Made by a program: the position numbers and the translations under genes
Shown here: positions 10,225 through 62,386 of the stretch, piece after piece
Layout: every line of letters begins with the position of its first letter
Numbering within the stretch: the stretch's first letter is position 1
From: Staphylococcus phage vB_StaM_PB50
Sequence record: OR770614.1
Direction: 5' to 3' (one strand)
Length of the DNA: 64,000 nucleotides
Notes under the pieces: generated by a model
What the model was told of the DNA's origin: nothing
Seen by the model: only the letters and a program-made list of their open reading frames with translations
Databases searched by the model: none

Positions 10225-10282
10225 TTATTAGAAAGATATATGATAATATCTTTCTTCATTATTATAATATATACTTAATCTT
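10225..10282 (-). promoter_or_regulatory. promoter-like motif + 5' hairpin + RBS cassette (subtype TTCATTATTATAATATATACTTA)
   Basis: minus strand reads TAAGTATATATTATAATAATGAAGAAAGA-loop-TCTTTC..TAATAAAATTAATGGAGGAA-ATG. Confidence 0.45.
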
Positions 10283-10587
10283 TATTTTGTTTCAAATTTC
10301 TCAATGCCTTTTTCTTCAATAACTACATCTGCATTTAATACTTGTAAACGTTTACCGTCTACATTAATAACAATGTAACTACCACCTGCTTCATCACTAT
10401 ATTTAGTTCTGATTTTCTTTCCTTCATATTGATGTAATACTTTACCATCTTTACTATATATAGTTACTTTTCTTTCTAGACCTGATGTATCTGATTTATG
10501 ATCTTTAGTAGCATCATCAAACCATGTACAACCTGCTAGTACTGTTGTTAATACTATAACTCCAAATAACATTAATAACTTTTTCAT
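10282..10587 (-). CDS. lipoprotein
   Basis: 101 aa; signal peptide with lipobox LAGC (MKKLLMLFGVIVLTTVLAGC). Confidence 0.6.
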   Translation of the reverse strand: MKKLLMLFGVIVLTTVLAGCTWFDDATKDHKSDTSGLERKVTIYSKDGKVLHQYEGKKIRTKYSDEAGGSYIVINVDGKRLQVLNADVVIEEKGIEKFETK

Positions 10588-10604
10588 AATTTATTTTCTC
10601 CATT

Positions 10605-11090
10605 CTATTCTAAATAGTATATTCCTTCACTAATATCAATTCCATGCTTTTTCAAATCAGAAGATTTAACTAAATTATTTTTACATATTAGTTGTCCATC
10701 AAACCTATTTGTAATAATACCTTTATTATTTACTTTTTTACCAATTGCATGATCTGAAATTCTAATAAATTTAAAATTATTGTTTTTTACATATATCGAT
10801 ATAGATCTTTTATTACTAGAAAAATTAACTATATAACCACTTCTAGCTAATTCATTTGTTAAACTTCCTTTTACATTACCTAATTCTAAAATAACTTCAT
10901 TTGTTTTAGAATTAATAAATTTCTTTCTAATATCTTCCCCTAACATCACATGGTCATTAATCTCTTTCACTATAGGCATTGTATTAAAGTTATTCTTCTG
11001 TGAGTAGTCTAGAAGAAAGAATAATAAATCTTCAATTCCTTCTTCTGTGACTGGAAAGACCTCCTTATTTTTATTCTCCAAATATTTCAT
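10605..11090 (-). CDS. hypothetical protein
   Basis: 161-aa ORF. Confidence 0.5.
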   Translation of the reverse strand: MKYLENKNKEVFPVTEEGIEDLLFFLLDYSQKNNFNTMPIVKEINDHVMLGEDIRKKFINSKTNEVILELGNVKGSLTNELARSGYIVNFSSNKRSISIYVKNNNFKFIRISDHAIGKKVNNKGIITNRFDGQLICKNNLVKSSDLKKHGIDISEGIYYLE

Positions 11091-11116
11091 CCGTTTAATC
11101 TCCTTTAATATATTAT

Positions 11117-11449
11117 TTATACAAAACTATTTAATTCCTTCATATGATAACTTCCTAATTCTAATTTAAGATGAAAGTTCTCTATCATTTTACAATTTAA
11201 ACCATATTCTTCTAATAATTCTACATTAATAGTTTCTTCATTAATTTCCAATATCTCTTTTAATGTAAATATATCTGAAGATACTACTGTTAGAGAATCC
11301 GCTAAATTATCAAGATCTTTTTCTCTAGAATCATCTATATTATAGAAGAAACTTTCTTCCATCAAATGCTTGCAATTAGATATAACAATTAAGTCTCCTA
11401 CAATTTTATCATAAACTCTATCTAAAACTTTTTTACTATCTTTTAACAT
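11117..11449 (-). CDS. hypothetical protein
   Basis: ORF track start at 11500 lies inside the cassette hairpin ATGAAGTT/AACTTCAT; GGAGTGGAATGG RBS precedes internal ATG (MLKDSKKVL) at ~11449. Confidence 0.45.
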   Translation of the reverse strand: MLKDSKKVLDRVYDKIVGDLIVISNCKHLMEESFFYNIDDSREKDLDNLADSLTVVSSDIFTLKEILEINEETINVELLEEYGLNCKMIENFHLKLELGSYHMKELNSFV

Positions 11450-11477
11450 TATCCATTCCACTCCTATTATTTTAATT

Positions 11478-11520
11478 GGTATGAAGTTTATCAACTTCAT
11501 TTATATAATATATACTTATA
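11478..11520 (-). promoter_or_regulatory. promoter-like motif + hairpin cassette
   Basis: TATAAGTATATATTATATAA then hairpin ATGAAGTT/AACTTCAT. Confidence 0.4.
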
Positions 11521-11521
11521 A

Positions 11522-11992
11522 TTAATTTAAATATATATTTTTATTGTAATTATCCTTACCTAATTTATTACTTACATTAATATCAAATATTAAATTTCCA
11601 GTTACAGATTTATCTTTATTATTAATACTTTTTACTAACAACATTGTAATTGAATTATTGTAAGTTAAAGTTTCTATAGTTGTATATATTTTAGTATCTT
11701 TACTTATATCATCCTTTTTAATATTTCTTACTAATTTTAAATCTCCATTGTCTATTATAGTACCTACTTCTGTATCTAATATTTCAATAATACAATTAAC
11801 AAAATCTTCTGCTTTATGAAACAGATCGTGTTTTTCATTAAGAATATAAGTTCTATTTGGTTTAACTTCAGCTTCTTTATTAATTGTATTTAATGATTTA
11901 TATATGAAGTTATTAATATAATTTTGTGTAACTTCAACTGGCAATTTTAAATTATTATTTATTAATTTGTCTATATTCTTTTTATTCTTCAT
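11522..11992 (-). CDS. hypothetical protein
   Basis: 156-aa ORF. Confidence 0.5.
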   Translation of the reverse strand: MKNKKNIDKLINNNLKLPVEVTQNYINNFIYKSLNTINKEAEVKPNRTYILNEKHDLFHKAEDFVNCIIEILDTEVGTIIDNGDLKLVRNIKKDDISKDTKIYTTIETLTYNNSITMLLVKSINNKDKSVTGNLIFDINVSNKLGKDNYNKNIYLN

Positions 11993-12444
11993 TATCTAAA
12001 ATTATCCTTTACTAAATTATTTTTATACTCTTTCTCTGTTATATCTTTTAAATTAAAATCCATTGAATTATGATACCCTTCACTGAGATTATTTTTAATA
12101 ATTAATAGTACTTTGTCTATTATTTTTATTAATCCTTCTTCATCTTCTGGAATAAGTATTGTATCATCATAATGTTGATCATATTCAAATTCATCTTTTA
12201 ATTTACTTAAAATTAAATTATTATCATCTTTAACTATTAAACCATCATCTTCTTCACTATAAAAGAAAAATATAGTACTTTCAGATAAATTTTCGATATC
12301 AAAAGATATTTCACTGTGTAAAGTTAATCCAAAACTATTCACCTTAAATATCTCACTTCTTATTAATTCATCAAAGACTATTTCTTTATTTTTGCCTTGA
12401 AAATAACATTCTTTTCCTCTTAAAATTGTTTTAAAGTATTTCAT
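11992..12444 (-). CDS. KExFK-tail paralog family protein (MKYxK N-terminus)
   Basis: 150 aa; starts MKYFK, ends TEKEYKNNLVKDNFR. Confidence 0.55.
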   Translation of the reverse strand: MKYFKTILRGKECYFQGKNKEIVFDELIRSEIFKVNSFGLTLHSEISFDIENLSESTIFFFYSEEDDGLIVKDDNNLILSKLKDEFEYDQHYDDTILIPEDEEGLIKIIDKVLLIIKNNLSEGYHNSMDFNLKDITEKEYKNNLVKDNFR

Positions 12445-12460
12445 GTTAAGATCTCCTTAT

Positions 12461-15031: not shown

Positions 15032-15088
15032 TTTGAGTAATATTAATTAATATTACTCATTTTTATAATATATATTTAAATTTGAGAT
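15032..15088 (-). promoter_or_regulatory. promoter-like motif + hairpin cassette
   Basis: TAAATATATATTATAAAAAT then hairpin GAGTAATATTAAT/ATTAATATTACTC then A-rich spacer, AAAGGTGGA RBS. Confidence 0.45.
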
Positions 15089-19565: not shown

Positions 19566-19622
19566 ATGAAGAAAGAGTTAATGATAATCTCTTTCTTCAT
19601 AATTATAATATATGCTTATTTT
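19566..19622 (-). promoter_or_regulatory. promoter-like motif + hairpin cassette (subtype)
   Basis: near-identical to the 10225, 20907 and 62297 copies. Confidence 0.45.
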
Positions 19623-20906: not shown

Positions 20907-20962
20907 TTAGAAAGATAATTAATATTTTATCTTTCTTCATTATTATAATATATACTTATTTT
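20907..20962 (-). promoter_or_regulatory. promoter-like motif + hairpin cassette (subtype)
   Basis: AAGTATATATTATAATAATGAAGAAAGATAA..TTATCTTTCT. Confidence 0.45.
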
Positions 20963-21904: not shown

Positions 21905-22020
21905 TTAAGATATATCATTATATATTATATATCTTCATTATTATAATATATATTTAAATAAATGATAATTACGAAAAAAAAAATATTAGAGGTAATGATC
22001 AAATTAATGATCATTACCTC
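21905..22020 (-). promoter_or_regulatory. terminator hairpin + promoter-like motif + leader hairpin
   Basis: GAGGTAATGATCA..TGATCATTACCTC followed (minus strand) by T10; then TTTAAATATATATTATAATAATG; then hairpin AAGATATAT..ATATATCTT; then AAAAGGAGATGA RBS. Confidence 0.5.
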
Positions 22021-23931: not shown

Positions 23932-23990
23932 TATAGGTAATGAGCGTTATAATATTTGCTCATTACCTATTTATAATATATATTTATTTC
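23932..23990 (-). promoter_or_regulatory. promoter-like motif + hairpin cassette
   Basis: AAATATATATTATAAAT then hairpin AGGTAATGAGC..GCTCATTACCT. Confidence 0.45.
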
Positions 23991-26133: not shown

Positions 26134-27861
26134 CATTTATCTTAACCTACATTTAATATATAGGATGAGACTATATCTTATGGTTTCCCATTTATATATT
26201 TAGTCGTTGAACCTTATAATTAGGATGCTGATTAGTTTCAAACTGTCCCAGCAATTAATATGATTTATTGAAGGCAATAAATCAATAAATTTTATAATTC
26301 ATTAAAATATTTCCGCTATTCCAAATTCGATAAACACCCGATTGTTTTTTAGGAAAATCTGAGTATTCCATGTTTTCATTAATGTAATTTGGAAAGTATT
26401 CTGGTATAATAGATTTTTCAAATTCATGAACTGAATAAATATTTCTTTTAAAAATTATTTTACATGTAGATTTTAATTCTTTAACATAATTAAAACCAAA
26501 ATCTTTGAAATATTTACCATCAGAATAATCTTTATTTATTATTAAATCTATTGTTTTTATATTGTTTCTTTTGAAATATTTAATTGAATTACTTAATAAT
26601 TTAAATAAACCACCATTTACAATTGTTTTATTACTAAAAGCAAATTTTTCTAATTTAACTTTATTCTTATTTATATAATTATATGACATAATTGCAATTA
26701 TTTCATCATTAATTTTTAATGAAAAATTAATATCATGAGAGGAATTTATATAGGTACTATTATTTTTATAGAAGTTTTTAGCGTCATAATCGTTAATTAT
26801 TTCAAAATTACATTCTCTAGCATTTATTTTCTTTTCTTGAAAATAATCTATAGAATACAATATCCTATTAATTATTAAATCTTTTTTAAACTCGTAATCT
26901 AATGAGTTAATAAAATATATTTCAATATCAAAATTATTTTTAAAAAAATCTTTCTTATGTTTATGATATTCTTTATTTTTCATTTTATCTGAATGATAAT
27001 AGTATCCATTAAATTCAAATCCTATTTTTTTATCTGGAAAGAATAGATCTACTTCATATATTTGATCATTAAAAGAGAATCTTTTGTTATTTAAAATAAT
27101 TCCTTTATATGATTCTTTTATATATTTTATTAATTCAATTTCTTGATTAGATTTAATATTTTTACAAAGAGGACATCTATATCCTTGTTGAAAGTCATTA
27201 ACTCTTACACTATAAATATTACCACATTTTTTATGTTTTATTGGATATTTTTCTTTATTATTGAATTTATAATTTAAATCCAACCATTCATATTCATTAC
27301 CATCTTTAGATTCAGATAATATTTTTATTAAATAATTTTCATCATCTTTATAATAATATTTACCTCTTTTTTTATTTGAACAAAAAGGACATCTTCTTTT
27401 CTTATTTCCCAAAAATAAGCGTGGTTCTACTTTATATTCATTTCCGCATATTTCATGTCTTAATAAAACTTTATCGCTACCATTTTTATTAAAACCTTCT
27501 ATATAAGTATAATCTTTATTTTCTTTTTTAATTTCTTCAAAAAAGTCTTTATCCGATATATTTTTATAATTTCTAGCTTTTTTATTCCCTTCATTTTTAA
27601 AACATTTCGGACATCTTCCTTTTCCTTCATTTAAGAAAATATTACCTTTAGATACTCTATATTCTTCACCACAAATTTTATGTTTTAAAATAAAAGGCTT
27701 TGAAGTTCCCTCATAATTGCTTATTAATTCATAATTATTATTATCTATATTTTTTATTTTGTTTATTACATCTTCTTCTGTTAATTTAGGTGGCATAAAC
27801 TCATCCTTTCAATTAATTATTAAGGAGGTTTATTTAAATTTATTTTTTATTGATAATTTTT
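26134..27861 (-). mobile_element. group I intron in beta-prime gene (HEG-containing), about 1.73 kb
   Basis: last exon-1 nucleotide U, intron ends ..AAAUG; 3' 145 nt contain R (GGUUCAACGACUAAAU) and S (AAGAUAUAGUC) P7 elements homologous to the mini-introns in beta-C; contains 504-aa ORF with own RBS. Confidence 0.7.
26282..27796 (-). CDS. intron-encoded putative homing endonuclease (3 zinc ribbons + Vsr/EDxHD-like PD-(D/E)xK domain)
   Basis: three repeats of C-G-x-x-Y...C-P-x-C zinc ribbons; YEVDLFFPDKKIGFEFNGYYYHS matches the Vsr/DUF559-type nuclease core; GAAAGGATGAG RBS inside intron. Confidence 0.6.
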   Translation of the reverse strand: MPPKLTEEDVINKIKNIDNNNYELISNYEGTSKPFILKHKICGEEYRVSKGNIFLNEGKGRCPKCFKNEGNKKARNYKNISDKDFFEEIKKENKDYTYIEGFNKNGSDKVLLRHEICGNEYKVEPRLFLGNKKRRCPFCSNKKRGKYYYKDDENYLIKILSESKDGNEYEWLDLNYKFNNKEKYPIKHKKCGNIYSVRVNDFQQGYRCPLCKNIKSNQEIELIKYIKESYKGIILNNKRFSFNDQIYEVDLFFPDKKIGFEFNGYYYHSDKMKNKEYHKHKKDFFKNNFDIEIYFINSLDYEFKKDLIINRILYSIDYFQEKKINARECNFEIINDYDAKNFYKNNSTYINSSHDINFSLKINDEIIAIMSYNYINKNKVKLEKFAFSNKTIVNGGLFKLLSNSIKYFKRNNIKTIDLIINKDYSDGKYFKDFGFNYVKELKSTCKIIFKRNIYSVHEFEKSIIPEYFPNYINENMEYSDFPKKQSGVYRIWNSGNILMNYKIY

Positions 27862-28974
27862 ACCATCATAGTCTGCACCCATACCAGCAAGTATATTATT
27901 ACTGATACCTACTACTGATGATTCTATATCTTGAATTATATCTTTAATTTTTAATATTTGAACTGAGCTTTCACTAATACTGGGATTTCTATTTAAAATA
28001 ACTCTCATTCCATTTTCAGTTTTATCAACTAGTTCTCTCATATATTTATATACTTTAGGATTAAATGTATCTAATGCTCTGTCTAATATTTCTTCACCTT
28101 TAGCTAAAGGAATATTTTCTGTTACATACATTAAATTTGCTAAGATAGGTTTATATACTTCTAAGAAGATGGTATAATTTAATCTAATTTCATTTAATTT
28201 AAGGTCAGGTGCTGGAACAATTACTGAACGTGCAGAGAAACCAACACGACTACCCATTAGTAATTTACGAATAGTTCCACCTTTACCTTTAATATTCTCA
28301 TTAATTACACGATCACTAATATTAATACTATCATCTTGAATTTTACTTAATAGATTTAATTTTTGTAACTCTACTGAATCATCTGTATAATGTCTATCAA
28401 GTTCTTTAATACTATTACTATGAGCAATTAATAAATTATAATCTTTATTAATTTCAGAATGTCTAAAAGTTTTAGTAGCTTTATTAACTGTAGCAGGTCT
28501 TAATTTAGGACTAAATACAGTTACATAATTTTGGAATAGTAAATCAGATAAATACCATTGTACTACTCTATTGTAATCTTTAGTTTTACGTTTTTCACGT
28601 TTAACTTCTTCTTTAAGAATTTTTAAGAAATTCTTTCTAAATTCAATTAAACCAATATAAGAGTTATGATCATCTTCAGGTTCAATTACATTACCATTTT
28701 CATCAATAGGTTTTTCAGAACTAATAATTTCTTGGAATCTTTTATTACCAATTAATTTTTTAACACGTTCATAACCTAACGGATTTAAAATATAATTATT
28801 ACCTAAATCTACAATAGCTTCATTAGTAATATTATCTGCTTCTGAATCAGGACCGAAGATTTTCTCACTGAAGATACCATCTTCAGTGAAATCACCTTTC
28901 TTATCAATTGATTCATGATTAGTTACAACTGGAACATTTTCTAAATCCTTTTTCTTGAGTAAAAATCTAACCAT
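27862..28974 (-). CDS. RNA polymerase beta-prime N-terminal fragment, exon 1
   Basis: GIFSEKIFGP (cf. GLFCERIFGP), VFSPKLRPATV (cf. PPDLRP), GKGGTIRKLLMGSRVGFSARSVIVPAP (cf. [23 protein letters not shown]), NRNPSISESSVQ (cf. NRAPTLHRLGIQ), ends ILAGMGADYDG (cf. NADFDGD); ORF track read-through KNYQ-stop is intronic. Confidence 0.8.
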
Positions 28975-28977: not shown

Positions 28978-30600
28978 TTAATCTTCTCCTTCTTCTACAA
29001 TTTCTTTAATGTCCATAATAACTTCCTGATCATCATTTTCTTTCTCTAATTTATCAATATTTTCAATATCTTCAATTTCTTTGATATTAGGTTTATTTTC
29101 AAAATAGAATGAACCATTCTCACCAGGATCTTTAACTTCACAGAATGGAGTTAACGTACGAGTAATACCTGGATTATTTGATGAAGTAGCAATCAAATCA
29201 ATTCTACCGAAATAAGTGTTATTGATATTGATTGTTCTAATAGATGGTTTACTAGTGTCTACAGCTGATTGTGGACCTGCTTTAGTCATTTTAAGAATTC
29301 TAGTAAATAAATCAATTGTATTAACTGCATTAGAATAACGTATACCATCAGAAGTTCCAATAGTTTTCAATAGATAATCTCTAGGTACTCCTGAGAATAA
29401 ACCTTTAAGGTTTTTAATAGTACGTTTTTTATCTGAGAAGTTAATCATACGGTAAGATGTATCAGAATTTTTTCTATTCAGTGGATAAGTTAAGTATTCT
29501 AATACTCTTAATCGTTTATTAGCTAAATCTGTATTATCTAATAAGTTAAGATTATCAAAGTTCTTAAACATGTATTTAACCACATGATAAGTTGATTCTT
29601 TATCTTCTTTTTCTAATCGTGATATAGCTTGAGTACGACTATCTAATATACGATCAAATGAAAGTATCATTGAATTCGCTTTATCTATTTTAGTGTCAAT
29701 ATTAGTTGAACCACTGAAGATAGAACCTAAAGCCTTTAACCAGAATTCTCTATCGTATATTTTATCTAATCCAGCTCTCATTCCTTTGAATAAATCTTTA
29801 ATACAAAGGATCATAGAATTTCTATAACGATCATCAACATCTAACCATTCTTTTTCAACTTTTAAAGAAAGTTTATTATTAATTTTAAAGTAATAGTAAT
29901 TATCTTCTTTATCATCATTAATATCTATTACTTCACAATGGTCTTTAATTTCTAAAAATTCAAATGTTTCGTCAAATCCCATTTTTGCAACAAAGAACAT
30001 AAATGCTGGAACACTCTTATTTTTATTGAACACTTCTAGATATAGAGTTCTCCCTCTTTGGAAATTAGACATCTTATTATCGTCATCCATAATAGTGTCT
30101 TTTTTAGAACCATTGACTGATAGTGGTTGCAATAAGTTTTTCATTACTACAGTACTAGCTTTTGGTTTATAAAATTCAGCATCAGCTAATTGTAGAATTG
30201 GGAAAAATTTGTTATTATTGATATAGTAGTATTGACCTTCAATAAGTTCAGGGAAATCTAATTTGTGTGTATATTCTTCTTTATTACCTTCTGAATCTTC
30301 AAATTCTACTGTAATTTGAACTTCCAGTAATTTAGATTCTTCAACATTGATTTTTCTATAATCTTTAGATTTAAGTTGTTTATCTGTCATTTGATTATAT
30401 TCATAAACCTGACTTGGTGAAACAACTTTACAATCTAAGAATTTAATTCCTTTAATAAATTCTACTGATCGATAAATATCTGAAATGATTTTTTCTAAAC
30501 TTTCATTTTGTCTGAAATAAATTACGTCTTCGTTAAATGGTTCTTTTTTGCTAATGTCTTCGTTGATGTTCTTTGTAACTTTACTTAAGTATTTACTCAA
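28978..30600 (-). CDS. RNA polymerase beta N-terminal fragment
   Basis: 540 aa, TTG start after GGAGAGTG RBS; ANKRLRVLEY (cf. HKRRISALG) and IRTININNTYFGRIDLIATSSNNPGI (cf. [27 protein letters not shown]); stop overlaps start of beta-prime-N. Confidence 0.75.
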   Translation of the reverse strand: MSKYLSKVTKNINEDISKKEPFNEDVIYFRQNESLEKIISDIYRSVEFIKGIKFLDCKVVSPSQVYEYNQMTDKQLKSKDYRKINVEESKLLEVQITVEFEDSEGNKEEYTHKLDFPELIEGQYYYINNNKFFPILQLADAEFYKPKASTVVMKNLLQPLSVNGSKKDTIMDDDNKMSNFQRGRTLYLEVFNKNKSVPAFMFFVAKMGFDETFEFLEIKDHCEVIDINDDKEDNYYYFKINNKLSLKVEKEWLDVDDRYRNSMILCIKDLFKGMRAGLDKIYDREFWLKALGSIFSGSTNIDTKIDKANSMILSFDRILDSRTQAISRLEKEDKESTYHVVKYMFKNFDNLNLLDNTDLANKRLRVLEYLTYPLNRKNSDTSYRMINFSDKKRTIKNLKGLFSGVPRDYLLKTIGTSDGIRYSNAVNTIDLFTRILKMTKAGPQSAVDTSKPSIRTININNTYFGRIDLIATSSNNPGITRTLTPFCEVKDPGENGSFYFENKPNIKEIEDIENIDKLEKENDDQEVIMDIKEIVEEGED

Positions 30601-30694
30601 TTATCCGACACTCTCCCTCTTGGTAATAAAAAACTTTATAAGTTATGAGTTATTTCTGTTTTTTATTTTTTTATAAAATGAAAACTCATAACAA

Positions 30695-31108: not shown

Positions 31109-31138
31109 GCCATAATATACTTATTTGTATATTATGGC
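31109..31138. terminator. bidirectional rho-independent terminator
   Basis: perfect 12-bp stem GCCATAATATAC/GTATATTATGGC, 6-nt loop, T-rich downstream; between convergent HU gene and 31146..31424. Confidence 0.75.
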
Positions 31139-31871: not shown

Positions 31872-31930
31872 TAGAGGTAATGATAAATAATATATCATTA
31901 CCTCATTTTTATAATATATATTTAAATAAT
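31872..31930 (-). promoter_or_regulatory. promoter-like motif + hairpin cassette
   Basis: TTAAATATATATTATAAAAAT + GAGGTAATGATATATTATTTATCATTACCTC + TAATATATTAAAACC.. + RBS of lipoprotein gene; motif abuts stop codon of upstream gene. Confidence 0.5.
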
Positions 31931-33620: not shown

Positions 33621-33678
33621 GAAAGATGTATAAATATCATACATCTCTCACAATTTTATAATATATATTTAAATTGAG
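33621..33678 (-). promoter_or_regulatory. promoter-like motif + hairpin cassette
   Basis: TTTAAATATATATTATAAAATTG then hairpin GAGATGTAT..ATACATCTC. Confidence 0.45.
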
Positions 33679-33681: not shown

Positions 33682-34131
33682 TTACTTAAATGAATCTTTT
33701 ACCATAATATTTTTATACTGTTTCTCTGTTATTTCATCAAAGTGTTCCATATACAAATTATGATTTAAAAAATTAATATTAAATCTTGGCATAGTCATTA
33801 CTGTATTTACTTCATTATTAATAATTAAATCTACATGAATTAAAGATTTAGCATCTTCATATTTTCTATTAACAAATACTATTGGATTATTCTCTATTTC
33901 ATGATTAACTTTTTCAGTTAGACTTTCAAATCCAAGTTTAGGGTAAATATCTTTGTTTTTCATTTTATTAATTTCATCTAATGTAAAACAAAAATCTGCA
34001 CCATTGCAATATTTGACAATGAAGTTTTTATTTTTTATGTCTTTTTTAATAAGTGGGGTTTTAAGTCCAGGCATAACATCTAAACCTAAAAATTTAATAT
34101 AACCATCTTTATTTAATCTATAATATTTCAT
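33682..34131 (-). CDS. MKYYK/KExFK-tail paralog family protein (tandem array 1/5)
   Basis: MKYYRLNKDGYIKFLGLD...EITEKQYKNIMVKDSFK. Confidence 0.6.
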   Translation of the reverse strand: MKYYRLNKDGYIKFLGLDVMPGLKTPLIKKDIKNKNFIVKYCNGADFCFTLDEINKMKNKDIYPKLGFESLTEKVNHEIENNPIVFVNRKYEDAKSLIHVDLIINNEVNTVMTMPRFNINFLNHNLYMEHFDEITEKQYKNIMVKDSFK

Positions 34132-34145
34132 ATTATAAAACCTCT

Positions 34146-34616
34146 TTATTTAAAAATTTCTTTAATTTTATTAGCTTTATATTCCTTTTCAGTTATTTTT
34201 ATATAATCTTCATTAATTATTAATTCCATTTTATTAATACCTTCTAAATTGAATGTAAATTTATCGTTATATCCATGATTTCTTATATTATCATATATTT
34301 CATTCAAAGTTTCTTCACCGGTTAAATGCATGCTATTTTCCCATATTGCATAACTTTTAAGATCAATCCAGTAATTCACGTACGTGTTTTCTTCTTCATC
34401 TCTTAAAAAATTAGTTTCTATTTTTATAGGAAAATCTTTAATTAAATCAATTAATATAATTTCTTCATCTTCTTTTACATATAAAGATTCTAATAATTCA
34501 ATATCTTTACCGTCTTTCTTAAGATACCAATTTCTTTCCATTAATTGAGAATATACATCAGGATCAATAAATAAAATTTTAGATATTCCACTTTGGGTCA
34601 TTTTATAATATTTCAT
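34146..34616 (-). CDS. MKYYK/KExFK-tail paralog family protein (2/5)
   Basis: MKYYKMTQSGISKILFID...KITEKEYKANKIKEIFK. Confidence 0.6.
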   Translation of the reverse strand: MKYYKMTQSGISKILFIDPDVYSQLMERNWYLKKDGKDIELLESLYVKEDEEIILIDLIKDFPIKIETNFLRDEEENTYVNYWIDLKSYAIWENSMHLTGEETLNEIYDNIRNHGYNDKFTFNLEGINKMELIINEDYIKITEKEYKANKIKEIFK

Positions 34617-34634
34617 TTTATATCTACTCCTTTT

Positions 34635-35087
34635 TTATTTAAAAGTTTCTTTGACCTTTAGATCTTTATACTCTTTTTCGGATACTTCTTCATAGTCAAT
34701 CCCTTCTGAGAGACTATATACACCTTCCTTTAATTTTTCAATTGAAAATTTTGTTTTAGATATTTTTTTATTTATTTTGTTATATATTTTTAATAAAGAA
34801 CTATTTTCATTCATTTTCATATTACTAACTTTACATATATGAAATTCTTCTTCTCCAATAAATACATACATATAACCATCTACATACATTTTTTCCTTTG
34901 GTCCTTTTCGAACACTATATTCTATACTTGGTGTTTTGTTTTCAATAATTTCTGATATACTAATTTCTTCATCTTCTCTTAAATAAAGATCTTCTTTTCT
35001 GAATAAATTATTGTAACAGTATACCATTTCACTATTAATACCTAAAATTTCAGACATTCCATATTGATTTATTTTATAATATTTCAT
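34635..35087 (-). CDS. MKYYK/KExFK-tail paralog family protein (3/5)
   Basis: MKYYKINQYGMSEILGIN...EVSEKEYKDLKVKETFK. Confidence 0.6.
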   Translation of the reverse strand: MKYYKINQYGMSEILGINSEMVYCYNNLFRKEDLYLREDEEISISEIIENKTPSIEYSVRKGPKEKMYVDGYMYVFIGEEEFHICKVSNMKMNENSSLLKIYNKINKKISKTKFSIEKLKEGVYSLSEGIDYEEVSEKEYKDLKVKETFK

Positions 35088-35103
35088 AATTTATTTCTCC
35101 TTT

Positions 35104-35535
35104 TTATTTAAAACTTTCTTTGATTTTATTATCTTTATATTCTTTTTCAGTAATTTCTACATATTGGATATTCTCTTTTAAATCATAAATTTCTTTATCT
35201 CTGCTAAAAATAAAATCTTTATTAAAAACTAAATCTTCTGCATGTTTATGAACTTCTTCAAGTGTATGATGTTTAAAATTATCTAAAATAATCTCTACAC
35301 TATTCGTTAAATATCCGCCTTTCATTTCTAAGTGAGCATCCATAGTTAAAGGTCTATTTGAATTTGTAAAGACGTTGAAATTAAGCTTTAAATTATCTTG
35401 ATCTTTAATCAAGTAACGTGTTTTAATGACTTCATTTTCTTCAAAACAAAAATTTTGTTTAAGATTATCATAACCACCACCATAAGTTTCTAAAATTTGA
35501 ACTACACCATCATTTATTAATTTATAATATTTCAT
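35104..35535 (-). CDS. MKYYK/KExFK-tail paralog family protein (4/5)
   Basis: ORF-track N-terminal 25 aa read through a 13-bp hairpin ATCCCAATACCTA/TAGGTATTGGGAT; AAAAGGAGATAT RBS precedes MKYYKLINDGVVQIL; ends EITEKEYKDNKIKESFK. Confidence 0.55.
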   Translation of the reverse strand: MKYYKLINDGVVQILETYGGGYDNLKQNFCFEENEVIKTRYLIKDQDNLKLNFNVFTNSNRPLTMDAHLEMKGGYLTNSVEIILDNFKHHTLEEVHKHAEDLVFNKDFIFSRDKEIYDLKENIQYVEITEKEYKDNKIKESFK

Positions 35536-35626
35536 TTTATAATATATCTCCTTTTTATTTATATAATAAAATATCCCAATACCTATTAATTTAGGTATTG
35601 GGATTATCATAATTTATTTCTCCTCT

Positions 35627-38983: not shown

Positions 38984-39060
38984 TTAATGCAAGAATGAAA
39001 TTTACTGCAATTACCATTATCTTTTCCATCTCCTTATTTATAAAAAAATTATTAAATTAA

Positions 39061-39116
39061 GAGTAATGATGAAGTTAATCATCATTACTCCATTTTTATA
39101 ATATATATTTAAATAT
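39061..39116 (-). promoter_or_regulatory. promoter-like motif + hairpin cassette
   Basis: TTAAATATATATTATAAAAATG + GAGTAATGATGATTAACTTCATCATTACTC. Confidence 0.45.
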
Positions 39117-44268: not shown

Positions 44269-44299
44269 CTCCTATTTATAAAAAATACTGATTTAACTA

Positions 44300-44908: not shown

Positions 44909-44917
44909 TTTTTATTA

Positions 44918-44985
44918 AATAAGGAGTAATGATGAAATTAATCACCATTACTCCAATTATATTTATTTTGAATCTTCTTTAATTT
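44918..44985. repeat. direct repeat copy A (cassette + last beta-C codons)
   Basis: about 65-75 nt near-identical to 45237..45305: ..AGTAATGATGAAATTAATCA(C/T)CATTACT..ATTATATTTATTTTGAATCTTCTTTAATTT. Confidence 0.65.
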
Positions 44986-45216: not shown

Positions 45217-45236
45217 AATAATACTCCTTTATTAAA

Positions 45237-45305
45237 AATAAAAGTAATGATGAAATTAATCATCATTACTTTTATTATATTTATTTTGAATCTTCTTTAA
45301 TTTCT
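45237..45305. repeat. direct repeat copy B
   Basis: see copy A; includes the genuine 3' end (..KEDSK-stop) of beta-C. Confidence 0.65.
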
Positions 45306-45673
45306 TTAACTAGATTATTTATTTCTCTAGGTGATAAATCTTTAATATCATCTACATTTTCGAATTTTTCCATTAAGAACTCTAATTGATCTGGAGAAAG
45401 ATCCATAATTGAATGAAGATCTTCTTCTCCTGCTTTATTATAATCAATACTAACATTTAGTGGACTAAAGTAAGCATTAAGTACTTTAGTGTTATTATTT
45501 TGATATCTCTTTTCAAATGAAGTATTTAATTTAAACGGATTACCTGTATATAACTCTACTAATAGACGTTTTCTTAAGTCTTCATTATTAGAGTACATAT
45601 TAGTTAATTCATTAATAGCTTTGATAGATCCACCGATCATCATGTTAGTTGTTTCCATCTCACCGCAGTTATT
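45281..45673 (-). CDS. RNA polymerase beta C-terminal fragment, exon 4
   Basis: exon begins NNCGEMETTNMMIGGSIKAINEL (cf. RpoB ..GGQRFGEMEVWALEAYGAA..); ORF-track Met at 45658 is internal. Confidence 0.6.
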   Translation of the reverse strand, partial: NNCGEMETTNMMIGGSIKAINELTNMYSNNEDLRKRLLVELYTGNPFKLNTSFEKRYQNNNTKVLNAYFSPLNVSIDYNKAGEEDLHSIMDLSPDQLEFLMEKFENVDDIKDLSPREINNLVKEIKEDSK

Positions 45674-45833
45674 CTAAATATTATTATTTAGCTAGACTAT
45701 ATCATTACCATTTAAGGTAGAATATATTTAGTCGTTGAACACTAATTAAAGTGATGCCGATTAGTTTAATACTCTTCTCAGCAATTAATATTCTTTACAT
45801 TTATACATTTCTATATAACGGAGCCTTTATTTG
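45674..45833 (-). mobile_element. compact ORF-less group I intron (about 160 nt), beta-C intron 3
   Basis: 5' exon ends ..CUCAGAGU with IGS GCUC 12 nt inside intron (G.U at splice site); R GUUCAACGACUAAAU and S AAUGAUAUAGUCU; ends ..AUUUAG. Confidence 0.65.
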
Positions 45834-46491
45834 ACTCTGAGAGGATTGTTGTTTATTCTTGATCTATAGAACTTAGAATCGGGTGTTCGTGTGGGAATAC
45901 CACTGTAATTATTAAAGTCAATTGATTTTGCACTTAATTTCCCACTAGGCTCGTGTTTTAACTTCAGGTGATACAAATCTCCAACCATAAATGTTCTATT
46001 ACTAACATCTAGTCGGTTTTTCTTAATATTGTATTTATTGAATAAGTATCTGATTTGTTCAGATTCAATATTATCAAAGAAAGGTGCTTGATGAAGTACA
46101 ATACCATTTTTAATAAAGTCTTCAATAGCTTCTTTAGTCTCTTCATTATCTAAACTATCAAATAATTTTACATAATTATCATAAGATACTTTATCTGCAT
46201 CTTTGATATATTCTAATAAATATTCTTTCTGCTTATTAACATCATCTAACTTACTAATACGATGTCTAATAACGCTTGAAATATGATTTAATTCTAATTC
46301 AACTAATGCTGAAGGATTTCCTCTATTAATAATACCCATATTATTATGAATTAAGTCTACTCTTTTCTTAATAGGGGTTTTATTATCTTTTGTGAAATCT
46401 TCTCCATCAAATTCAGTAATCATTGGCATTTCATTATCTGGAACAATCTTAGCTACTACACCTTTTCCACCGTACCTTGTGCTTATTTTTG
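45834..46491 (-). CDS. RNA polymerase beta C-terminal fragment, exon 3
   Basis: (G)SKISTRYGGKGVVAKIVPDNEMPM...DLIHNNMGIINRGNPSALVE (cf. [41 protein letters not shown]) and FMVGDLYHLKLKHEPSGKLSAKS (cf. [20 protein letters not shown]). Confidence 0.75.
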
Positions 46492-46675
46492 CATTTGTGT
46501 TAATGAACTTCATATACTTTACTAAGAAGATCAGACTATATCATTACCTTCATATAAGGTAGAATATATTTAGTCGTTGAACACTATTTATAGTGATGCT
46601 GATTAATTTTATAATTCTCAGCAATTAATATTCTTTACATATAAATTTTCATTCATAAGGGACCTATTAATTTGA
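46492..46675 (-). mobile_element. compact ORF-less group I intron (about 184 nt), beta-C intron 2
   Basis: 5' exon ends ..CACGGAU, IGS GUCC in AAUAGGUCC; R/S elements; 3' end ..ACAAAUG; splicing joins PLVHG-SKISTRYGGKG. Confidence 0.65.
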
Positions 46676-47242
46676 TCCGTGCACTAAAGGTTTCTTCTCT
46701 AATACTTTAACTCTAAATACGATTTTATCAAATTGATTTCCATCATATACAAGTTTAGCATTAGGATCAATGTAGCTCTTAAATCTATTATAAGTTCTAA
46801 TTAAATCATTACTAAATTTCTTCTTGCGTACAATATCATCAGTAACAGTTACAAATGTACGATAGAAGTGTTCTAAATCTTTGATATATTTTAAGAATTG
46901 CTCTGAGTACTTTTCATTCTCTAATTTTTCAATTGATTCATTATTAAGTACATCAATATCAATAATTTTACCATGTACCTTGTATGCATTATCACTTTCA
47001 ACAATTTTAGATAACATATCATTTTTAAATTTATGAATTAATTCGTCATAGTTTAGTCGTCTTGTTGCTGTTAATACACCATCTTTAATTTCTTCTCCAA
47101 CATCTGGAAATGCTTTATAACTTTCTTCATCACCATAAATATTTAAAGGAATATCATTTGTATTTATAGTTACATTAACTACATGAACGAAATAACTTGA
47201 CATTTTCTCAGCTAATGATTCTGATACAACAATACCATCTTC
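46676..47242 (-). CDS. RNA polymerase beta C-terminal fragment, exon 2
   Basis: begins EDGIVVSESLAEK.. (cf. FEDSILVSERV..), ends IVFRVKVLEKKPLVHG(S) (cf. IVKVYLAVKRRIQPGDK); ORF-track Met at 47203 is internal. Confidence 0.7.
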
Positions 47243-47403
47243 CTATAGGTTATAATTAATAAAATTATACCATAGACTATATCATTACCGTTTAAGGTAG
47301 AATATATTTAGTCGTTGAACACTGTTTTTAGTGATGCTGATTAATTTAATAACATCTCAGCAATTAATATTCTTTACATACATAAATTTCTTTATGCAGG
47401 AAC
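47243..47403 (-). mobile_element. compact ORF-less group I intron (about 161 nt), beta-C intron 1
   Basis: R/S elements and P6/P8-like hairpins as in introns 2 and 3; ends ..CCUAUAG giving in-frame stop TAG just before exon 2; exact 5' splice site uncertain (+/- few nt). Confidence 0.55.
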
Positions 47404-47943
47404 AAAGTTAATTTTATTCGTAAATCCTTTATCTGGTAAAAATACTGAAGTAGCGTTTGTACCATATTGGAAATTATTTGATTCTTCATCATAGTTTTGA
47501 TCTTTATAAAGTACTTCATTTTTATCAACAGTACTACCAATTTCTAAAGAATCAATTTTTTCATTTTGATATTTATTACCGAACTTCTCAGCTAAATGAT
47601 TAGCTTCTTCTCTAATAATAATATCATACTCATCATTATCTTTATACTTCACTAAATAGTATTTTACATATTTATTCTTTTCAAATATAAAAATAACTTC
47701 AAAATCTCTTTCAGCTTTCTTATAACCAGTTGAATATTTACCCACTTGATTCTCAAAACCAGTTTGAATTAATGGAGGTTCAGCTTCAGTTAATTGAATA
47801 CATTGACCTATATGTGAAGTGAACATTTGTGATCTATTACCATTAGTTCTATTAACATTAGGCATTAATAGTAGTTCCGATAAAAATTCATGACTTTTCT
47901 TATCTTCAATCTCTTGCATTCTTTGTGTTCTTTCCTTTGTCAT
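47404..47943 (-). CDS. RNA polymerase beta C-terminal fragment, exon 1
   Basis: GGAGAGTG RBS; LLLMPNVNRTNGNRSQM..PLIQTGFEN (cf. LMGANMQRQAVPLL.PLVGTGME) and GTNATSVFLPDKGFTNKINF (cf. GQNMRVAFMPWNGYNFEDS). Confidence 0.75.
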
Positions 47944-48003
47944 CCTATAAACACTCTCCCTGTAATATAAAAGATAATGTGAAATAATATTCTCTTAATA
48001 TTC

Positions 48004-48092
48004 CACATTTTTATAATATATATTTAATAATAATTTTGTGCAATGGAATGGATCCAATGACACTTATTTTATGTCATTGGATATTCCATTTT
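48004..48092 (-). promoter_or_regulatory. terminator-like hairpin + promoter-like motif upstream of beta-C gene
   Basis: imperfect long IR AATGGAATGGATCCAATGACA/TGTCATTGGATATTCCATT then TTAAATATATATTATAAAAATGTGG about 60 nt upstream of beta-C start. Confidence 0.45.
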
Positions 48093-48100
48093 AAATATAA

Positions 48101-53208: not shown

Positions 53209-53304
53209 ATCAAAATCTCTCCTTTAATTTTATTTATTCTTCTAATTTAAATCTCCTTATAATATATTAGAAGTAATGACAAATAATGTGTCATTACTTC
53301 ATTT

Positions 53305-56954: not shown

Positions 56955-57029
56955 ATCTAAATCATCCTTTTCATTATCTTATTTTATCTTTCAATTTTAT
57001 AATATATATTTATTTAATTCTTTACTAAT

Positions 57030-60017: not shown

Positions 60018-60365
60018 TTATATTTGTTTATTTTGTTTTAAATGAGGTATTAACTCATTTAAAACATAATTATCTACTTTGATTCCGAAATCCTCAGCTG
60101 AATCTGTTATCAATATATTATTGAATGTGAATTCATCTTCGAATAATAAAGATTTATCAGAAGTATCAATTCTAAATATTCCCTTTATATTGACTGTGTT
60201 GTTGTAGTTATTTTCGTATTCTATGTCTTCGAAAACTAAATAAACGTTTTCATCATATTTCTCGCTGTATACATTCCAAAATCTGTATAAAGATGATTCA
60301 ATATCCACTCTACCTAATATTTCATTTATAGAGTTTTTTAATTCTACTTTTTCATAATCTTTCAT
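60018..60365 (-). CDS. hypothetical protein
   Basis: 115 aa; AGGAGAGTG RBS; promoter cassette upstream. Confidence 0.5.
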   Translation of the reverse strand: MKDYEKVELKNSINEILGRVDIESSLYRFWNVYSEKYDENVYLVFEDIEYENNYNNTVNIKGIFRIDTSDKSLLFEDEFTFNNILITDSAEDFGIKVDNYVLNELIPHLKQNKQI

Positions 60366-60429
60366 ATCTAATTCACTCTCCTAATTAAATAATATTTTTG
60401 AAATAATGACTAAATTAATAATCGCTATA

Positions 60430-60508
60430 TCACTATAATAATATATATTTAAAATACATTTAAACGCAATATAATAGAGGCAATGACAAGTTAATGTCAT
60501 TACCTCTT
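60430..60508 (-). promoter_or_regulatory. hairpin + promoter-like motif cassette
   Basis: AGAGGCAATGACA..TGTCATTACCTCT hairpin then TTTAAATATATATTATTATAG. Confidence 0.45.
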
Positions 60509-60662: not shown

Positions 60663-60727
60663 ATTTATCTCCTTTCTTAATTCATATAAATTACATATGA
60701 ATATAAGGATAAAGAGTTGTTTTATAA

Positions 60728-61192
60728 CTATTTAATTACTAGAGTCACTTCTTTAAAATCATTAATATTAAACTGAATATGTGATATATTAAATTTATAT
60801 TTTCCAGTTAAAATGATATTATCATTATATAAATCACTAATTATTTCGTACTCACGATTTTGTCCATCTTTAAATGTATGAGTATATTGATTAGTGTCAA
60901 TACCTAATGATTTTTTTACACTTTTGAAAAGAGATATTATTTCTTTAATTAGCGAATACATTAAAGGATAATCAATTGAAGTAACACTATTTACAGATTT
61001 AATTAATATAGTATCCGATTTTTTATCATATATGAAATTATCTTTAGATGTTTCTTTAATTAAAGCATTGTCAAATATAGTTAATAAAACATTTAGATTC
61101 TTATTTATTTCATTTTTACAATTTTCAACAGAACCTAATCTTTCTTCCATATCTTTCATTTTAGCATTTTTCTTTAAATCAATAATGTCCAT
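60728..61192 (-). CDS. hypothetical protein
   Basis: 154 aa; AGGAGAGTG RBS; promoter cassette upstream. Confidence 0.5.
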   Translation of the reverse strand: MDIIDLKKNAKMKDMEERLGSVENCKNEINKNLNVLLTIFDNALIKETSKDNFIYDKKSDTILIKSVNSVTSIDYPLMYSLIKEIISLFKSVKKSLGIDTNQYTHTFKDGQNREYEIISDLYNDNIILTGKYKFNISHIQFNINDFKEVTLVIK

Positions 61193-61230
61193 ATCCTAAA
61201 CACTCTCCTATTTTCTAATATATTAGAGGT

Positions 61231-61285
61231 AATGACAAATAATATGTCATTACCTCATTTTTATAATATATATTTATTCTTCTTC
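61231..61285 (-). promoter_or_regulatory. promoter-like motif + hairpin cassette
   Basis: AATAAATATATATTATAAAAAT + GAGGTAATGACATATTATTTGTCATTACCTC + TAATATATTAGAAAATAGGAGAG-ATG. Confidence 0.5.
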
Positions 61286-61323
61286 TTGATCATAATCAGG
61301 TCTAGTATCTTTAAGTAAATCTT
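61275..61323. repeat. 49-bp ectopic copy of the 3' end of beta-prime-C last exon
   Basis: TTATTCTTCTTCTTGATCATAATCAGGTCTAGTATCTTTAAGTAAATCT identical to 62391..62439 (encodes ..DLLKDTRPDYDQEEE-stop on minus strand) but here non-coding. Confidence 0.7.
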
Positions 61324-61356
61324 AAAGATCATCTTAAAATTAAAAAAAAATAAAGG

Positions 61357-61393
61357 ATCATAGATATTAGTCTTAATGACTAATATCTATGAT
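61357..61393 (-). terminator. rho-independent terminator
   Basis: perfect 16-bp stem ATCATAGATATTAGTC/GACTAATATCTATGAT, 5-nt loop, followed on the minus strand by a 9-nt T-run; just after stop of 61396..61713. Confidence 0.7.
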
Positions 61394-61395
61394 AT

Positions 61396-61713
61396 TTATA
61401 AACTATCAATAATAGGTGCCAATTCTGCACTAACATTTTCATTTGTTGATTCATAATAAGCACTTATTAAAATTTCTTTAAGTGATAATCCAGGATATGC
61501 TCTTACAATTTTATAGCATTCTGAAATTTCACGAATAGTAAATGAACTAATATGATTTTCATAAGTATCAACTATAGACATAGTTCCTTTATTATCAATT
61601 TCTGCTTGTTCTAATAAAACACTATCATTAATGACTTTTTTATTTCTTTCCGTCATCATTTCAACACCGAATTCGTTAAATAATCTTTCTAATTTTTCTT
61701 TACATATACACAT
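61396..61713 (-). CDS. hypothetical protein
   Basis: 105-aa ORF. Confidence 0.45.
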   Translation of the reverse strand: MCICKEKLERLFNEFGVEMMTERNKKVINDSVLLEQAEIDNKGTMSIVDTYENHISSFTIREISECYKIVRAYPGLSLKEILISAYYESTNENVSAELAPIIDSL

Positions 61714-61733
61714 ATTTATCTTCTCCTTTTTTA

Positions 61734-62232
61734 TTAAGCTTCTTGTAAATCTTCATCGATTAAAGAAATTACTTCTTTTTTCTTATTTTCTAACTCTTCA
61801 ACGTTTAAAGCTTCTTCTAAAATGTAGTTATTTAAAAGAATTGTATCAATTGTAATAGATGAACCATTAATAGTAACATCGACAGTAACAGGAGTTGAAG
61901 AAACTTTTGCATTTAAATTAATAACTTCAGCATTATATTTTTCTTCTAAAGAAGATATGAATTCTTTTATATCTTTTTCTTTATATGCTAAAAATTCAGC
62001 TTCTTTTTTTACTCCTTTAACTGCTTTTCCATATCCTTCAATAGCTTCAACAACTTTACTAATTTGATTATCGTTATTTTCATTAGTGAAAATTGTAAGT
62101 GATTTTAATTCTCTTTGTCTGTTAATGTTAAAATTAGATACCATCATTTCTTTTAATTCTTCGTGTTCCACTACATTAATTGTTAAACCAGTTTTGCTTT
62201 CTAATTCTTTTACTTCTTTGATAAATTTATTC
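61734..62232 (-). CDS. hypothetical protein
   Basis: ORF-track N-terminus MKKEIIIISLNKIKQIMEEFIM is read-through of hairpin + RBS; ATGGAGGAA RBS precedes MNKFIKEV. Confidence 0.5.
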
Positions 62233-62296
62233 ATAATAAATTCCTCCATTATTTGTTTTATTTTATTTAAAGAGATTATGATAATCTCTTTCTTCA

Positions 62297-62386
62297 TTAT
62301 TATAATATATAATTAAAAATATGTATGTTACGCTTTTGCAATATATTAGAGGTAACGCTCAATTTAATGAGCGTTACCTCTGTTTA
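62297..62386 (-). promoter_or_regulatory. hairpin + promoter-like motif + leader hairpin cassette
   Basis: GAGGTAACGCTCA..TGAGCGTTACCTC + TAATATATTGC.. + TTAATTATATATTATAATAATGAAGAAAGAGATTATCATAATCTCTTT + RBS. Confidence 0.5.

Follow-up and report, generated by a model that had tools for sequence, protein, structure and literature searches.

Predicted AR9-type early promoters with a stem-loop at the transcription start in a Staphylococcus jumbo phage

Why would a phage place the same AT-rich motif, together with a hairpin, in front of gene after gene on one strand? The question is raised by a 64,000-nucleotide (nt) stretch of Staphylococcus phage vB_StaM_PB50 (sequence record OR770614.1), which was analyzed at its full length and is called the window in the following. 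An initial annotation had reported at least 17 copies of a promoter-like motif, coupled to a hairpin and a ribosome-binding site (RBS), in front of minus-strand genes between positions 10225 and 62386, and had suggested a phage-specific promoter class. Our analysis supports the prediction that these repeats are early promoters of an AR9-like RNA polymerase (RNAP) packaged in the virion, and the hairpin coupled to the +1 position is a robust, clade-specific refinement of this known promoter. Taken together, the cassettes are probably early promoters of the virion RNAP (vRNAP) whose 5'-terminal hairpin leaders may protect early mRNA.

The conservation of the AT motif in front of minus-strand genes is indeed far above chance. 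The sequence TATATATTAT has 16 exact matches in the window, 14 of them on the minus strand, with 6.5 expected. The pattern ATATATTAT-N6-G was also matched 16 times, always on the minus strand (16/16), compared to 1.8 expected matches and a maximum of 8 in 100 shuffles. The 13-mer AAATATATATTAT occurs in 10 minus-strand copies and in none on the plus strand. Combining the core with the G after the N6 spacer yielded 15 sites that read T-AAATATATATTAT-N6-G, on the minus strand throughout, of which 10 contain the exact 13-mer and 5 have one or two changes at positions 2-4 (AAG/AAT/AAGC). The G is found exactly six nt past the 13-mer in 15/15 sites, whereas near-matches within genes lack it. The sixteenth match to the pattern, at 50764, was rejected as a promoter, as its 13-mer has three mismatches, it lies inside the end of an open reading frame (ORF) and no hairpin is present. 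Alignment of the sites yielded the consensus T(-20) A A A/G T A T A T A T T A T(-7) A A w A A T(-1) G(+1) A A G, in which -20 to -13 are invariant. A purine-rich initial transcribed sequence is conserved as well (GAAG/GAGG), with G at +4 in 10/15 sites. The sites are listed here, each named by the position of its predicted +1.

62269..62315, minus strand: P62295, with T-20 to -1 at 62315..62296; GAAGAAAGA-family hairpin paired at +5..+27; would drive 61734..62234 and 61396..61713
61226..61276, minus strand: P61256, hairpin GAGGTAATGAC..GTCATTACCTC at +1..+31 (-18.5 kcal/mol); would drive 60728..61192
60400..60451, minus strand: P60431, weaker imperfect hairpin at +1..+32; would drive 60018..60365 and downstream genes
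56992..57012, minus strand: P56992, no hairpin; short leader with the start codon at +38
47979..48026, minus strand: P48006, hairpin at +1..+28; would drive the first exon of the non-virion RNAP (nvRNAP) beta-C gene, 47392..47943
39060..39111, minus strand: P39091, hairpin GGAGTAATGATGA..TCATCATTACTC at +1..+32; upstream of an HNH gene and the DNA ligase operon
33621..33671, minus strand: P33651, hairpin at +3..+31; orthologues in phages Machias and MarsHill carry different stems
31874..31924, minus strand: P31904, hairpin GAGGTAATGAT..ATCATTACCTC at +1..+31; the promoter overlaps with the stop codon of the preceding gene
23937..23986, minus strand: P23966, hairpin GTAATGAGC..GCTCATTAC at +1..+30; downstream of the primase gene
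21907..21956, minus strand: P21936, hairpin at +2..+30; a separate T-run terminator lies just upstream (21989..22020)
20909..20958, minus strand: P20938, GAAGAAAGA-family hairpin at +3..+30
19568..19618, minus strand: P19598, 13-mer AAGCATATATTAT; GAAGAAAGAG-family hairpin at +1..+31
15035..15078, minus strand: P15058, hairpin GAGTAATATTAATTAATATTACTC at +1..+24
11483..11518, minus strand: P11498, short hairpin GAAGTTGATAAACTTC at +1..+16
10230..10277, minus strand: P10257, GAAGAAAGA-family hairpin at +3..+28

The initial annotation had regarded an equal frequency of the motif inside coding regions on either strand as a result that would speak against a promoter. None of the sites is on the plus strand, all 15 lie within leaders of minus-strand genes, and 11 of these are outside any mechanically called ORF. 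The remaining four fall in artificial 5' ORF extensions that begin at the ATG formed by -2..+1. At these four sites (+1 at 62295, 20938, 19598 and 11498), the ATG of ..AATG is in frame with the downstream gene, and mechanical ORF calling over-extended the genes by 17-21 codons; the true starts, preceded by a Shine-Dalgarno (SD) sequence, are found downstream. The leaders are ordered as promoter, hairpin, A-rich unpaired spacer, SD sequence (GGAGG/GGAGAGTG) and start codon. The distance to the start codon had been described as fixed, which does not hold, since it is narrow yet variable with 38-66 nt from +1 (14 sites with an assignable start).

Fifteen of the 17 reported copies thus carry the core plus G. 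The other two, at about 44960 and 45280, are not promoters, as both have a degenerate AAATAAATATAAT and no G at +1:

44923..44954, minus strand: GGAGTAATGG..CATTACTCC hairpin directly after the stop codon of a duplicated small ORF (reported as 44960)
45237..45276, minus strand: 17-bp hairpin immediately behind the stop codon that closes the last nvRNAP beta-C exon, 45281..45658 (reported as 45280)

Which polymerase would read the 15 sites? In phage AR9, the early promoter is AAATATATATTAT-(6N)-G(+1), with 5' ends mapped by differential RNA sequencing (dRNA-seq) and primer extension (Lavysh et al. 2017, PMC5312081). There, the motif precedes 41 transcription start sites (TSSs) mapped by dRNA-seq, of which selected ones were checked by primer extension (PMC5312081). 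Two tested AR9 early promoters, P087 and P104, were still active under chloramphenicol, and because both transcripts accumulate despite the drug, the motif was attributed to the injected virion RNAP (PMC5312081). The 13-mer, the 6-nt spacer and the G start of AR9/PBS1 early promoters are identical to those of the window sites; in both cases, the promoters lie upstream of co-oriented early genes including nvRNAP subunits, and two multisubunit RNAPs are encoded. The window differs by a more constrained spacer (AAwAAT, T at -1) and by its invariant T at -20.

With a GC content of about 23%, the window is, judged by its sequence, part of a Staphylococcus jumbo phage related to AR9/PBS1. Its identity to the Staphylococcus jumbo phage Machias is 96.4-96.8% and to AH12 93-94%, while S6, PALS_2, UFV_DC4, MarsHill, Madawaska, LY01 and SA1 reached about 81-84%. 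A tblastn search with the window ORFs found AR9 orthologues of nvRNAP beta-N, beta'-N and beta-C, primase, NAD-ligase, UvsX and the C-terminus of the vRNAP subunit g078 (E = 1e-9 to 1e-109). The RNAP-subunit matches in AR9 were g105, g270, g089 and the g078 C-terminus, and homologues of both the AR9-like vRNAP and nvRNAP are therefore encoded in this genome:

28978..30600, minus strand: nvRNAP beta-N (AR9 tblastn)
27847..28974: nvRNAP beta'-N (AR9 tblastn)
45281..47943, minus strand: nvRNAP beta-C in four ORFs (AR9 tblastn)
62390..62650, minus strand: C-terminus of vRNAP subunit g078 (AR9 tblastn)

The annotation of Machias (96% identical) lists viral and non-viral RNAP subunits, and that of MarsHill is concordant. 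The 998-amino-acid (aa) ORF at 1989..4985 encodes a tail fibre rather than an RNA polymerase.

The genes behind the promoters fit an early class. P48006 is located between the UvsX and nvRNAP beta-C genes, syntenic with AR9 P087, and RNA-seq of phage SA1 placed the orthologues of the ligase and TelA-like genes in the early class (PMC9414953). All 15 sites are upstream of, and co-oriented with, the genes that they lead. In MarsHill, MEME had detected this motif ahead of 29 genes (Korn et al., bioRxiv 10.1101/2020.12.14.422802); these predicted early promoters belong to the same clade, are centred on the same TATATTAT motif, and several are orthologous to window promoters. From the AR9 mapping and the MarsHill prediction, it follows that the promoter class is already known, experimentally in the former and by prediction in the latter. 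The suggestion of a phage-specific class akin to the promoters of packaged virion RNAPs in phiKZ/AR9-like phages thus gains support, as the motif is the AR9 consensus, the genome is AR9-like and homologues of vRNAP and nvRNAP are present.

The hexamer TATTAT at -12..-7 in an AT-rich context could also be read as the -10 element of a host sigma-A promoter used by the S. aureus RNAP. Its spacing from the G is correct, and the phage does carry TGATATAAT upstream of the nvRNAP beta-N operon (28978..30600): the sequence that the initial annotation took for a host-type promoter is present at 30690-30710 on the minus strand, as a perfect match to an extended -10 and thus a candidate host-type element. 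However, no conserved -35 was found in the aligned sites, with an information content of at most 0.6 bit across -40..-28, nor a TG at -15/-14, so that neither of the two features expected of a sigma-A/sigma-70 promoter, a conserved -35 or a TG-extended -10, is present. The invariance of -20 to -13 is not a sigma-A requirement, and the motif is the AR9 element, of which P087 and P104 are active without new protein synthesis (PMC5312081). Matches to a sigma-70-type consensus were not enriched either (155 vs 145 +/- 12), a scan that is uninformative at 23% GC. We regard a sigma-A promoter as highly unlikely. As a side observation, the operon of nvRNAP beta-N, beta'-N and primase has no canonical early promoter upstream, the best register having four mismatches.

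The exact AR9 13-mer with N6 and G was also found in at least 18 AR9-like metagenomic contigs of IMG/VR with GC contents from 0.23 to 0.38. Most of the matches listed by the 20-nt pattern scan were single chance matches in unrelated AT-rich contigs, and a filter for AR9-like loci retained the following:

IMG/VR loci with the motif: L012, L022, L034, L039, L047, L055, L059, L062, L074
IMG/VR loci with the motif, continued: L078, L084, L087, L103, L106, L109, L114, L115, L117

These matches show that the AR9 early-promoter code is conserved far beyond cultured phages.

What does the hairpin add to this promoter? It had been described as following or preceding the motif. In the window it always follows, directly after the promoter in 14/15 sites (P56992 being the exception), with its first base between +1 and +5 and its last between +16 and +32; the preceding hairpins are separate elements. 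Of the two stem classes proposed, both exist, GAAGAAAGA at four sites and GAGGTAATGA-like stems at about four, and a further six sites have unrelated stems. With the AR9 start site, the G that opens the stem would be +1, which agrees with the earlier proposal that the hairpin is the extreme 5' end of the transcript.

A first, lenient criterion (dG, the folding free energy, of at most -4 kcal/mol, start at or before +6) was passed by 34% of chance matches and was replaced by a strict one, in which pairing had to start no later than +3, with at least 7 bp and a dG of at most -5 kcal/mol within +1..+36. By this definition, a 5' hairpin is present at 12/15 window promoters and at 44/57 (77%) of the non-redundant sequences from the window, Machias, MarsHill and S6, in contrast to 0/30 AR9 sites (Fisher p = 2e-13 for Staphylococcus vs AR9, with orthologous copies among the 57 sites not being independent). 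The background was 5% for random G-starting window segments and 8% for chance matches in unrelated viral contigs. The first paired base of 51 hairpins in the four Staphylococcus jumbo phages was +1 in 38, +2 in 1, +3 in 9 and +5 in 3, so that the stem begins within about 4 nt of the predicted 5' end of the transcript, and the median dG of +1..+36 was -9.7 vs -1.6 for random segments. Among the 18 AR9-like metagenomic loci listed, 8/29 sites have a hairpin of the strict type, concentrated in a few contigs. Because it is frequent in the Staphylococcus phages, absent from the 30 AR9 sites and found at 8 of the 29 metagenomic ones, the hairpin is a variable, lineage-specific addition to a conserved promoter that is close to obligatory in the Staphylococcus clade.

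Within this clade, hairpins are kept while their sequences change. The orthologues of P33651 have three different stems, and at P48006 A-U pairs are replaced by G.U in orthologues; the hairpin is retained in both cases. Compared to its Machias orthologue (L009), P19598 has an exactly inverted inner stem and loop (GAGATTATCATTAACTC vs GAGTTAATGATAATCTC) within an unchanged outer stem, which, judged from the two sequences, would be the signature of a template switch or a palindrome inversion at the DNA level. The words hairpin, stem-loop and terminator are absent from the MarsHill report (bioRxiv 10.1101/2020.12.14.422802), we found no discussion of hairpin coupling at these promoters in the papers on these phages that we could read, and the coupling appears to be previously unreported.

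Stem-loops at the 5' end that stabilise mRNA are known from the T7 phi10 leader, the E. coli ompA 5' untranslated region (UTR) and the B. subtilis aprE and ermC leaders; in T7 phi10, the phage-polymerase promoter starts transcription at the first base of the stem. The window leaders resemble these stabilisers in having the stem-loop at the predicted 5' end or no more than a few nt from it, upstream of the RBS and without overlap. They differ in that the arrangement is applied across a whole promoter class with many stem sequences. The RBS is not sequestered, since the hairpins end at +16..+32 and are followed by the A-rich spacer, the SD sequence and the start codon at +38..+66.

We therefore propose the following course of events. 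A multisubunit RNAP, packaged in the virion and injected with the DNA, would read these promoters through the recognition element AAATATATATTAT at -19 to -7, with T at -20, AA at -6/-5 and T at -1 as a lineage extension. Transcription would start at the invariant G six bases downstream, as in the mapped AR9 consensus. This G would be the first base of a 10-14-bp stem-loop, or lie within 2-4 nt of it, and early mRNAs would begin with a hairpin from +1 to about +30. Such a hairpin would leave no single-stranded 5' end and may shield the early mRNA from decay that depends on the 5' end while the RBS stays free. The relevant decay enzymes of the host are an RppH-type pyrophosphohydrolase, followed by RNase J1/J2, and RNase Y. 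Protection of the 5' end of early mRNAs is the most likely role of the hairpin, and we give it about an even chance.

A different role would follow if the cassettes were composites of promoter and terminator, in which the hairpin mainly terminates the early transcript arriving from upstream or provides its stable 3' end, the promoter that follows has been packed against it, and the 5' position is incidental. An intrinsic terminator consists of a stem and a subsequent U-tract, and this is not what the promoter-coupled hairpins look like: a U-tract (at least 5 T in 8) follows 1/14 of them vs 10/17 promoter-less intergenic hairpins in the window (p = 0.007), and the tails after the +1 hairpins are A-rich, with 305 A (60%) vs 186 T in 510 positions. 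Between 19000 and 34000, terminator calling on the minus strand picked up none of the five +1 hairpins as intrinsic terminators. T-runs are present at clear operon-end terminators (31109..31138, 61357..61393 and 21989..22020). A terminator past +1 is further disfavoured because transcripts starting there would also be aborted. All promoter-hairpin copies of the window follow co-directional genes. In the complete S6 genome, however, the strict hairpin is present at 4/5 promoters in divergent intergenic regions vs 18/25 co-directional ones, which counts against a purely terminating role because divergent promoters have no upstream co-directional transcript to stop. A separate hairpin was found within about 100 nt upstream of five promoters that still keep their own +1 hairpin, and P21936 and P61256 retain theirs despite a separate upstream terminator. 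Finally, the stem start is locked to +1, which argues for a function at the 5' end because termination does not need such locking. On balance, we favour a role that belongs to the 5' end itself rather than termination.

Several observations nevertheless weigh against protective leaders, and a number of them are what a terminator would predict. The GAGGTAATGA family is also found without a promoter at gene ends (21989, 62348, 60476, 53270 and 59580), once with a T-run (21989..22020):

62348..62381, minus strand: promoter-less GAGGTAAC..GTTACCTC hairpin directly 3' of the vRNAP-subunit gene
60476..60507, minus strand: promoter-less GAGGTAATGAC-type hairpin with one mismatch, upstream of the promoter at 60451
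21989..22020, minus strand: promoter-less GAGGTAATGATC..GATCATTACCTC hairpin followed by a T-run, canonical terminator-like
53270..53300, minus strand: GAAGTAATGAC..GTCATTACTTC hairpin with a decayed motif in front, in which ..ATAAAAATG is kept and the 13-mer is lost

When aligned, the two phages differ behind the same vRNAP gene end, where Machias has promoter and hairpin and the window has just the hairpin. Some intergenic hairpins carry the label 'terminator' in the MarsHill and Machias GenBank records; the only one that was checked by position, in Machias, is the +1 hairpin orthologous to the P31904 site, and its label probably marks a 5' leader element. Among the matches listed, U-runs follow some +1 hairpins in the AR9-like contigs L078, L012 and L115. 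The sense/antisense stability and G.U counts are weak evidence, confounded by the sense-strand G>C skew, and the G.U and strand asymmetry would fit a terminator equally well. The non-independence of the orthologous copies noted above weighs on the same side, and TSS, polymerase and half-life effect are all inferred for this phage. The weakest point is AR9 itself, whose early leaders have no hairpin although its host B. subtilis has the same RNase J/Y machinery; a stabiliser is not obviously required, because AR9 does without it in a host with similar RNases.

Repeated cassettes that bound a module insertion are also known for the promoter-early stem-loop (PeSL) cassettes of T4-type phages, in which a stem-loop terminator lies upstream of a sigma-70-like early promoter (PMC2839356, PMC4122927). 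The window shares with PeSLs the repeated combination of early promoter, stem-loop and SD sequence between small early genes and the one bounded module insertion, which lends the composite promoter-terminator some support. In contrast to PeSLs, the stem-loop here lies downstream of the promoter, starts at +1 and mostly has no U-tract behind it, and it is coupled to a vRNAP-type promoter that is not sigma-70-like; the order of the elements is thus reversed. In sum, we consider cassettes built primarily for termination unlikely. The GAGGTAATGA..TCATTACCTC-TAATATATT family, which is also found without promoters at gene ends, might in addition serve to terminate transcripts or to form their 3' ends, and offer a repeat for module gain or loss. 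A dual or attenuating role of the hairpins is possible. On the antisense strand, the cassettes (e.g., 31874..31904) present the hairpin followed by the complement of the spacer, ATTTTTATAA, and score as intrinsic terminators of antisense transcripts, which may be no more than a by-product or may reflect genuine insulation.

If the hairpin does act at the 5' end, its target need not be a nuclease. The nascent structure might act on the polymerase or a protein partner, by aiding promoter escape or pausing of the sigma-less virion RNAP, by promoter-proximal attenuation to short 5' RNAs, or as a mark on early transcripts for an RNA-binding factor of phage or host. A stem that begins at +1 forms as soon as the RNA leaves the exit channel, the purine-rich initial sequence described above is conserved, and the two stem families recur at non-homologous loci. 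For the giant phage 201phi2-1, short RNAs derived from 5'UTRs by premature termination have been reported (PMC11512511). Against such a role, AR9 has the same promoter with 0/30 hairpins, so that the hairpin is not needed for recognition or escape by that enzyme, stems that differ freely between orthologous promoters speak against a sequence-specific binder, and there is no U-tract in support of attenuation. This makes an action on polymerase or partner improbable.

It is likewise quite improbable, and slightly more so, that the +1 hairpin is a lineage-specific mark of vRNAP transcripts that is needed beyond generic stability. Such a mark might distinguish early from host mRNAs during phage-induced RNA turnover, or serve handling by a phage factor (release, export or translation) at the site of first transcription; AR9 and some AR9-like lineages would then have lost the hairpin or never acquired it.

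The recurrence of sequence families at many intergenic sites and the association with an indel would also be expected if the repeats were dispersed palindromes, selfish or neutral, that take no part in regulation. Such elements would not be held to one strand, to a position before genes, and to an invariant 13-mer and G, all of which are strict here. The window elements have counterparts in phages with no more than about 81-84% identity, and the motif is found in AR9-like contigs with GC contents from 0.23 to 0.38. We consider this explanation very improbable.

A hairpin at an early promoter is also reminiscent of phage N4, where the hairpin forms in the DNA ahead of +1 and is itself what the single-subunit virion RNAP recognises. 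Both systems combine an injected virion polymerase with a hairpin-associated early promoter. In the window, recognition would be by a linear 13-mer common to AR9, and the hairpin is downstream of +1 and sequence-variable. A DNA-hairpin promoter of the N4 type was rejected on this geometry, and because the linear motif serves AR9 with no hairpin at all. At gathering thresholds, Rfam had no matches to the window as a whole, and an E-value search of 44200-48100 gave only a chance microRNA match.

The indel mentioned above is a module of about 1 kb that is absent from Machias:

61326..62333, minus strand: module with its own promoter cassette, two genes and a T-run terminator

The module is flanked by a 50-nt duplication of the 3' end of the vRNAP gene plus a GAGGTAA-type hairpin, and sits between the promoter-less hairpin 62348..62381 and the duplicated gene end with its promoter cassette. 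This module shuffling at 61326-62333 resembles that ascribed to the T4-type PeSLs (PMC4122927). About 5/24 of the gap edges relative to Machias are within 100 nt of a cassette, which is not clearly above gene boundaries in general; a preference of breakpoints for cassettes over ordinary gene boundaries was not shown by the gaps relative to Machias, MarsHill and S6.

Further observations concern neighbouring loci. The nvRNAP beta-C gene is one ORF in AR9 (g089) and is split here into four ORFs by three intervening sequences of 150-190 nt:

45659-45826, 46514-46666 and 47204-47391, minus strand: intervening sequences of nvRNAP beta-C

The three share a highly conserved core of about 105 nt that is predicted to be structured, have no Rfam match and are small for group I introns. 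Since the downstream ORFs have no convincing SD sequence, splicing seems more likely than separate translation of the ORFs. A 504-aa ORF (26282..27796, minus strand) is akin to AR9 g146, a Hef-like homing endonuclease (E = 4e-33). Its segment is missing from Machias, MarsHill and S6 (gap 26134-27876), and the ORF has probably been inserted recently, as a mobile element, between the genes of the primase operon and nvRNAP beta'-N. A 317-aa ORF (62802..63755, minus strand) resembles the group I intron homing endonuclease g147 of AR9. Its segment, missing at this place in Machias (gap 62732-64000), directly precedes the final part of the vRNAP subunit gene (62390..62650), so that the vRNAP gene is interrupted here as well.

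Five paralogous genes, each encoding about 150 aa, stand in tandem at 33682..36076 on the minus strand, and related gene ends, with conserved 3' and 5' ends (repeat families D2, D3, D6 and D15), are found at 8656, 9197, 11992 and 41805, also on the minus strand. They form an expanded early gene family with no assigned function. At 5540..6154 (minus strand), a 204-aa ORF consists of degenerate short tandem repeats rich in Asp, Glu and Ser codons (repeat families D1, D7 and D9). It encodes a highly acidic repeat protein and is located where the late block (plus-strand) meets the early one (minus-strand).

With 15 of 17 copies retained, the initial observation is largely confirmed; its reading as a phage-specific promoter is supported by the comparisons made here, and the function suggested for the hairpin is plausible. 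The promoter itself is not new, and its presence confirms that the AR9 early-promoter code is common to Staphylococcus jumbo phages. The new aspect is the leader design, as one clade adds a 5' stem-loop to about 80% of its predicted vRNAP transcripts and AR9 adds none. For annotation, this means that the 'terminator' label on at least one hairpin, the Machias orthologue of the P31904 site, is probably to be corrected to a 5' leader element. The compact cassettes of promoter and leader, independent of the host RNAP, could serve the engineering of staphylococcal phages, and the Staphylococcus clade and AR9 together offer a clean natural comparison for the survival of early jumbo-phage mRNA in Firmicutes.

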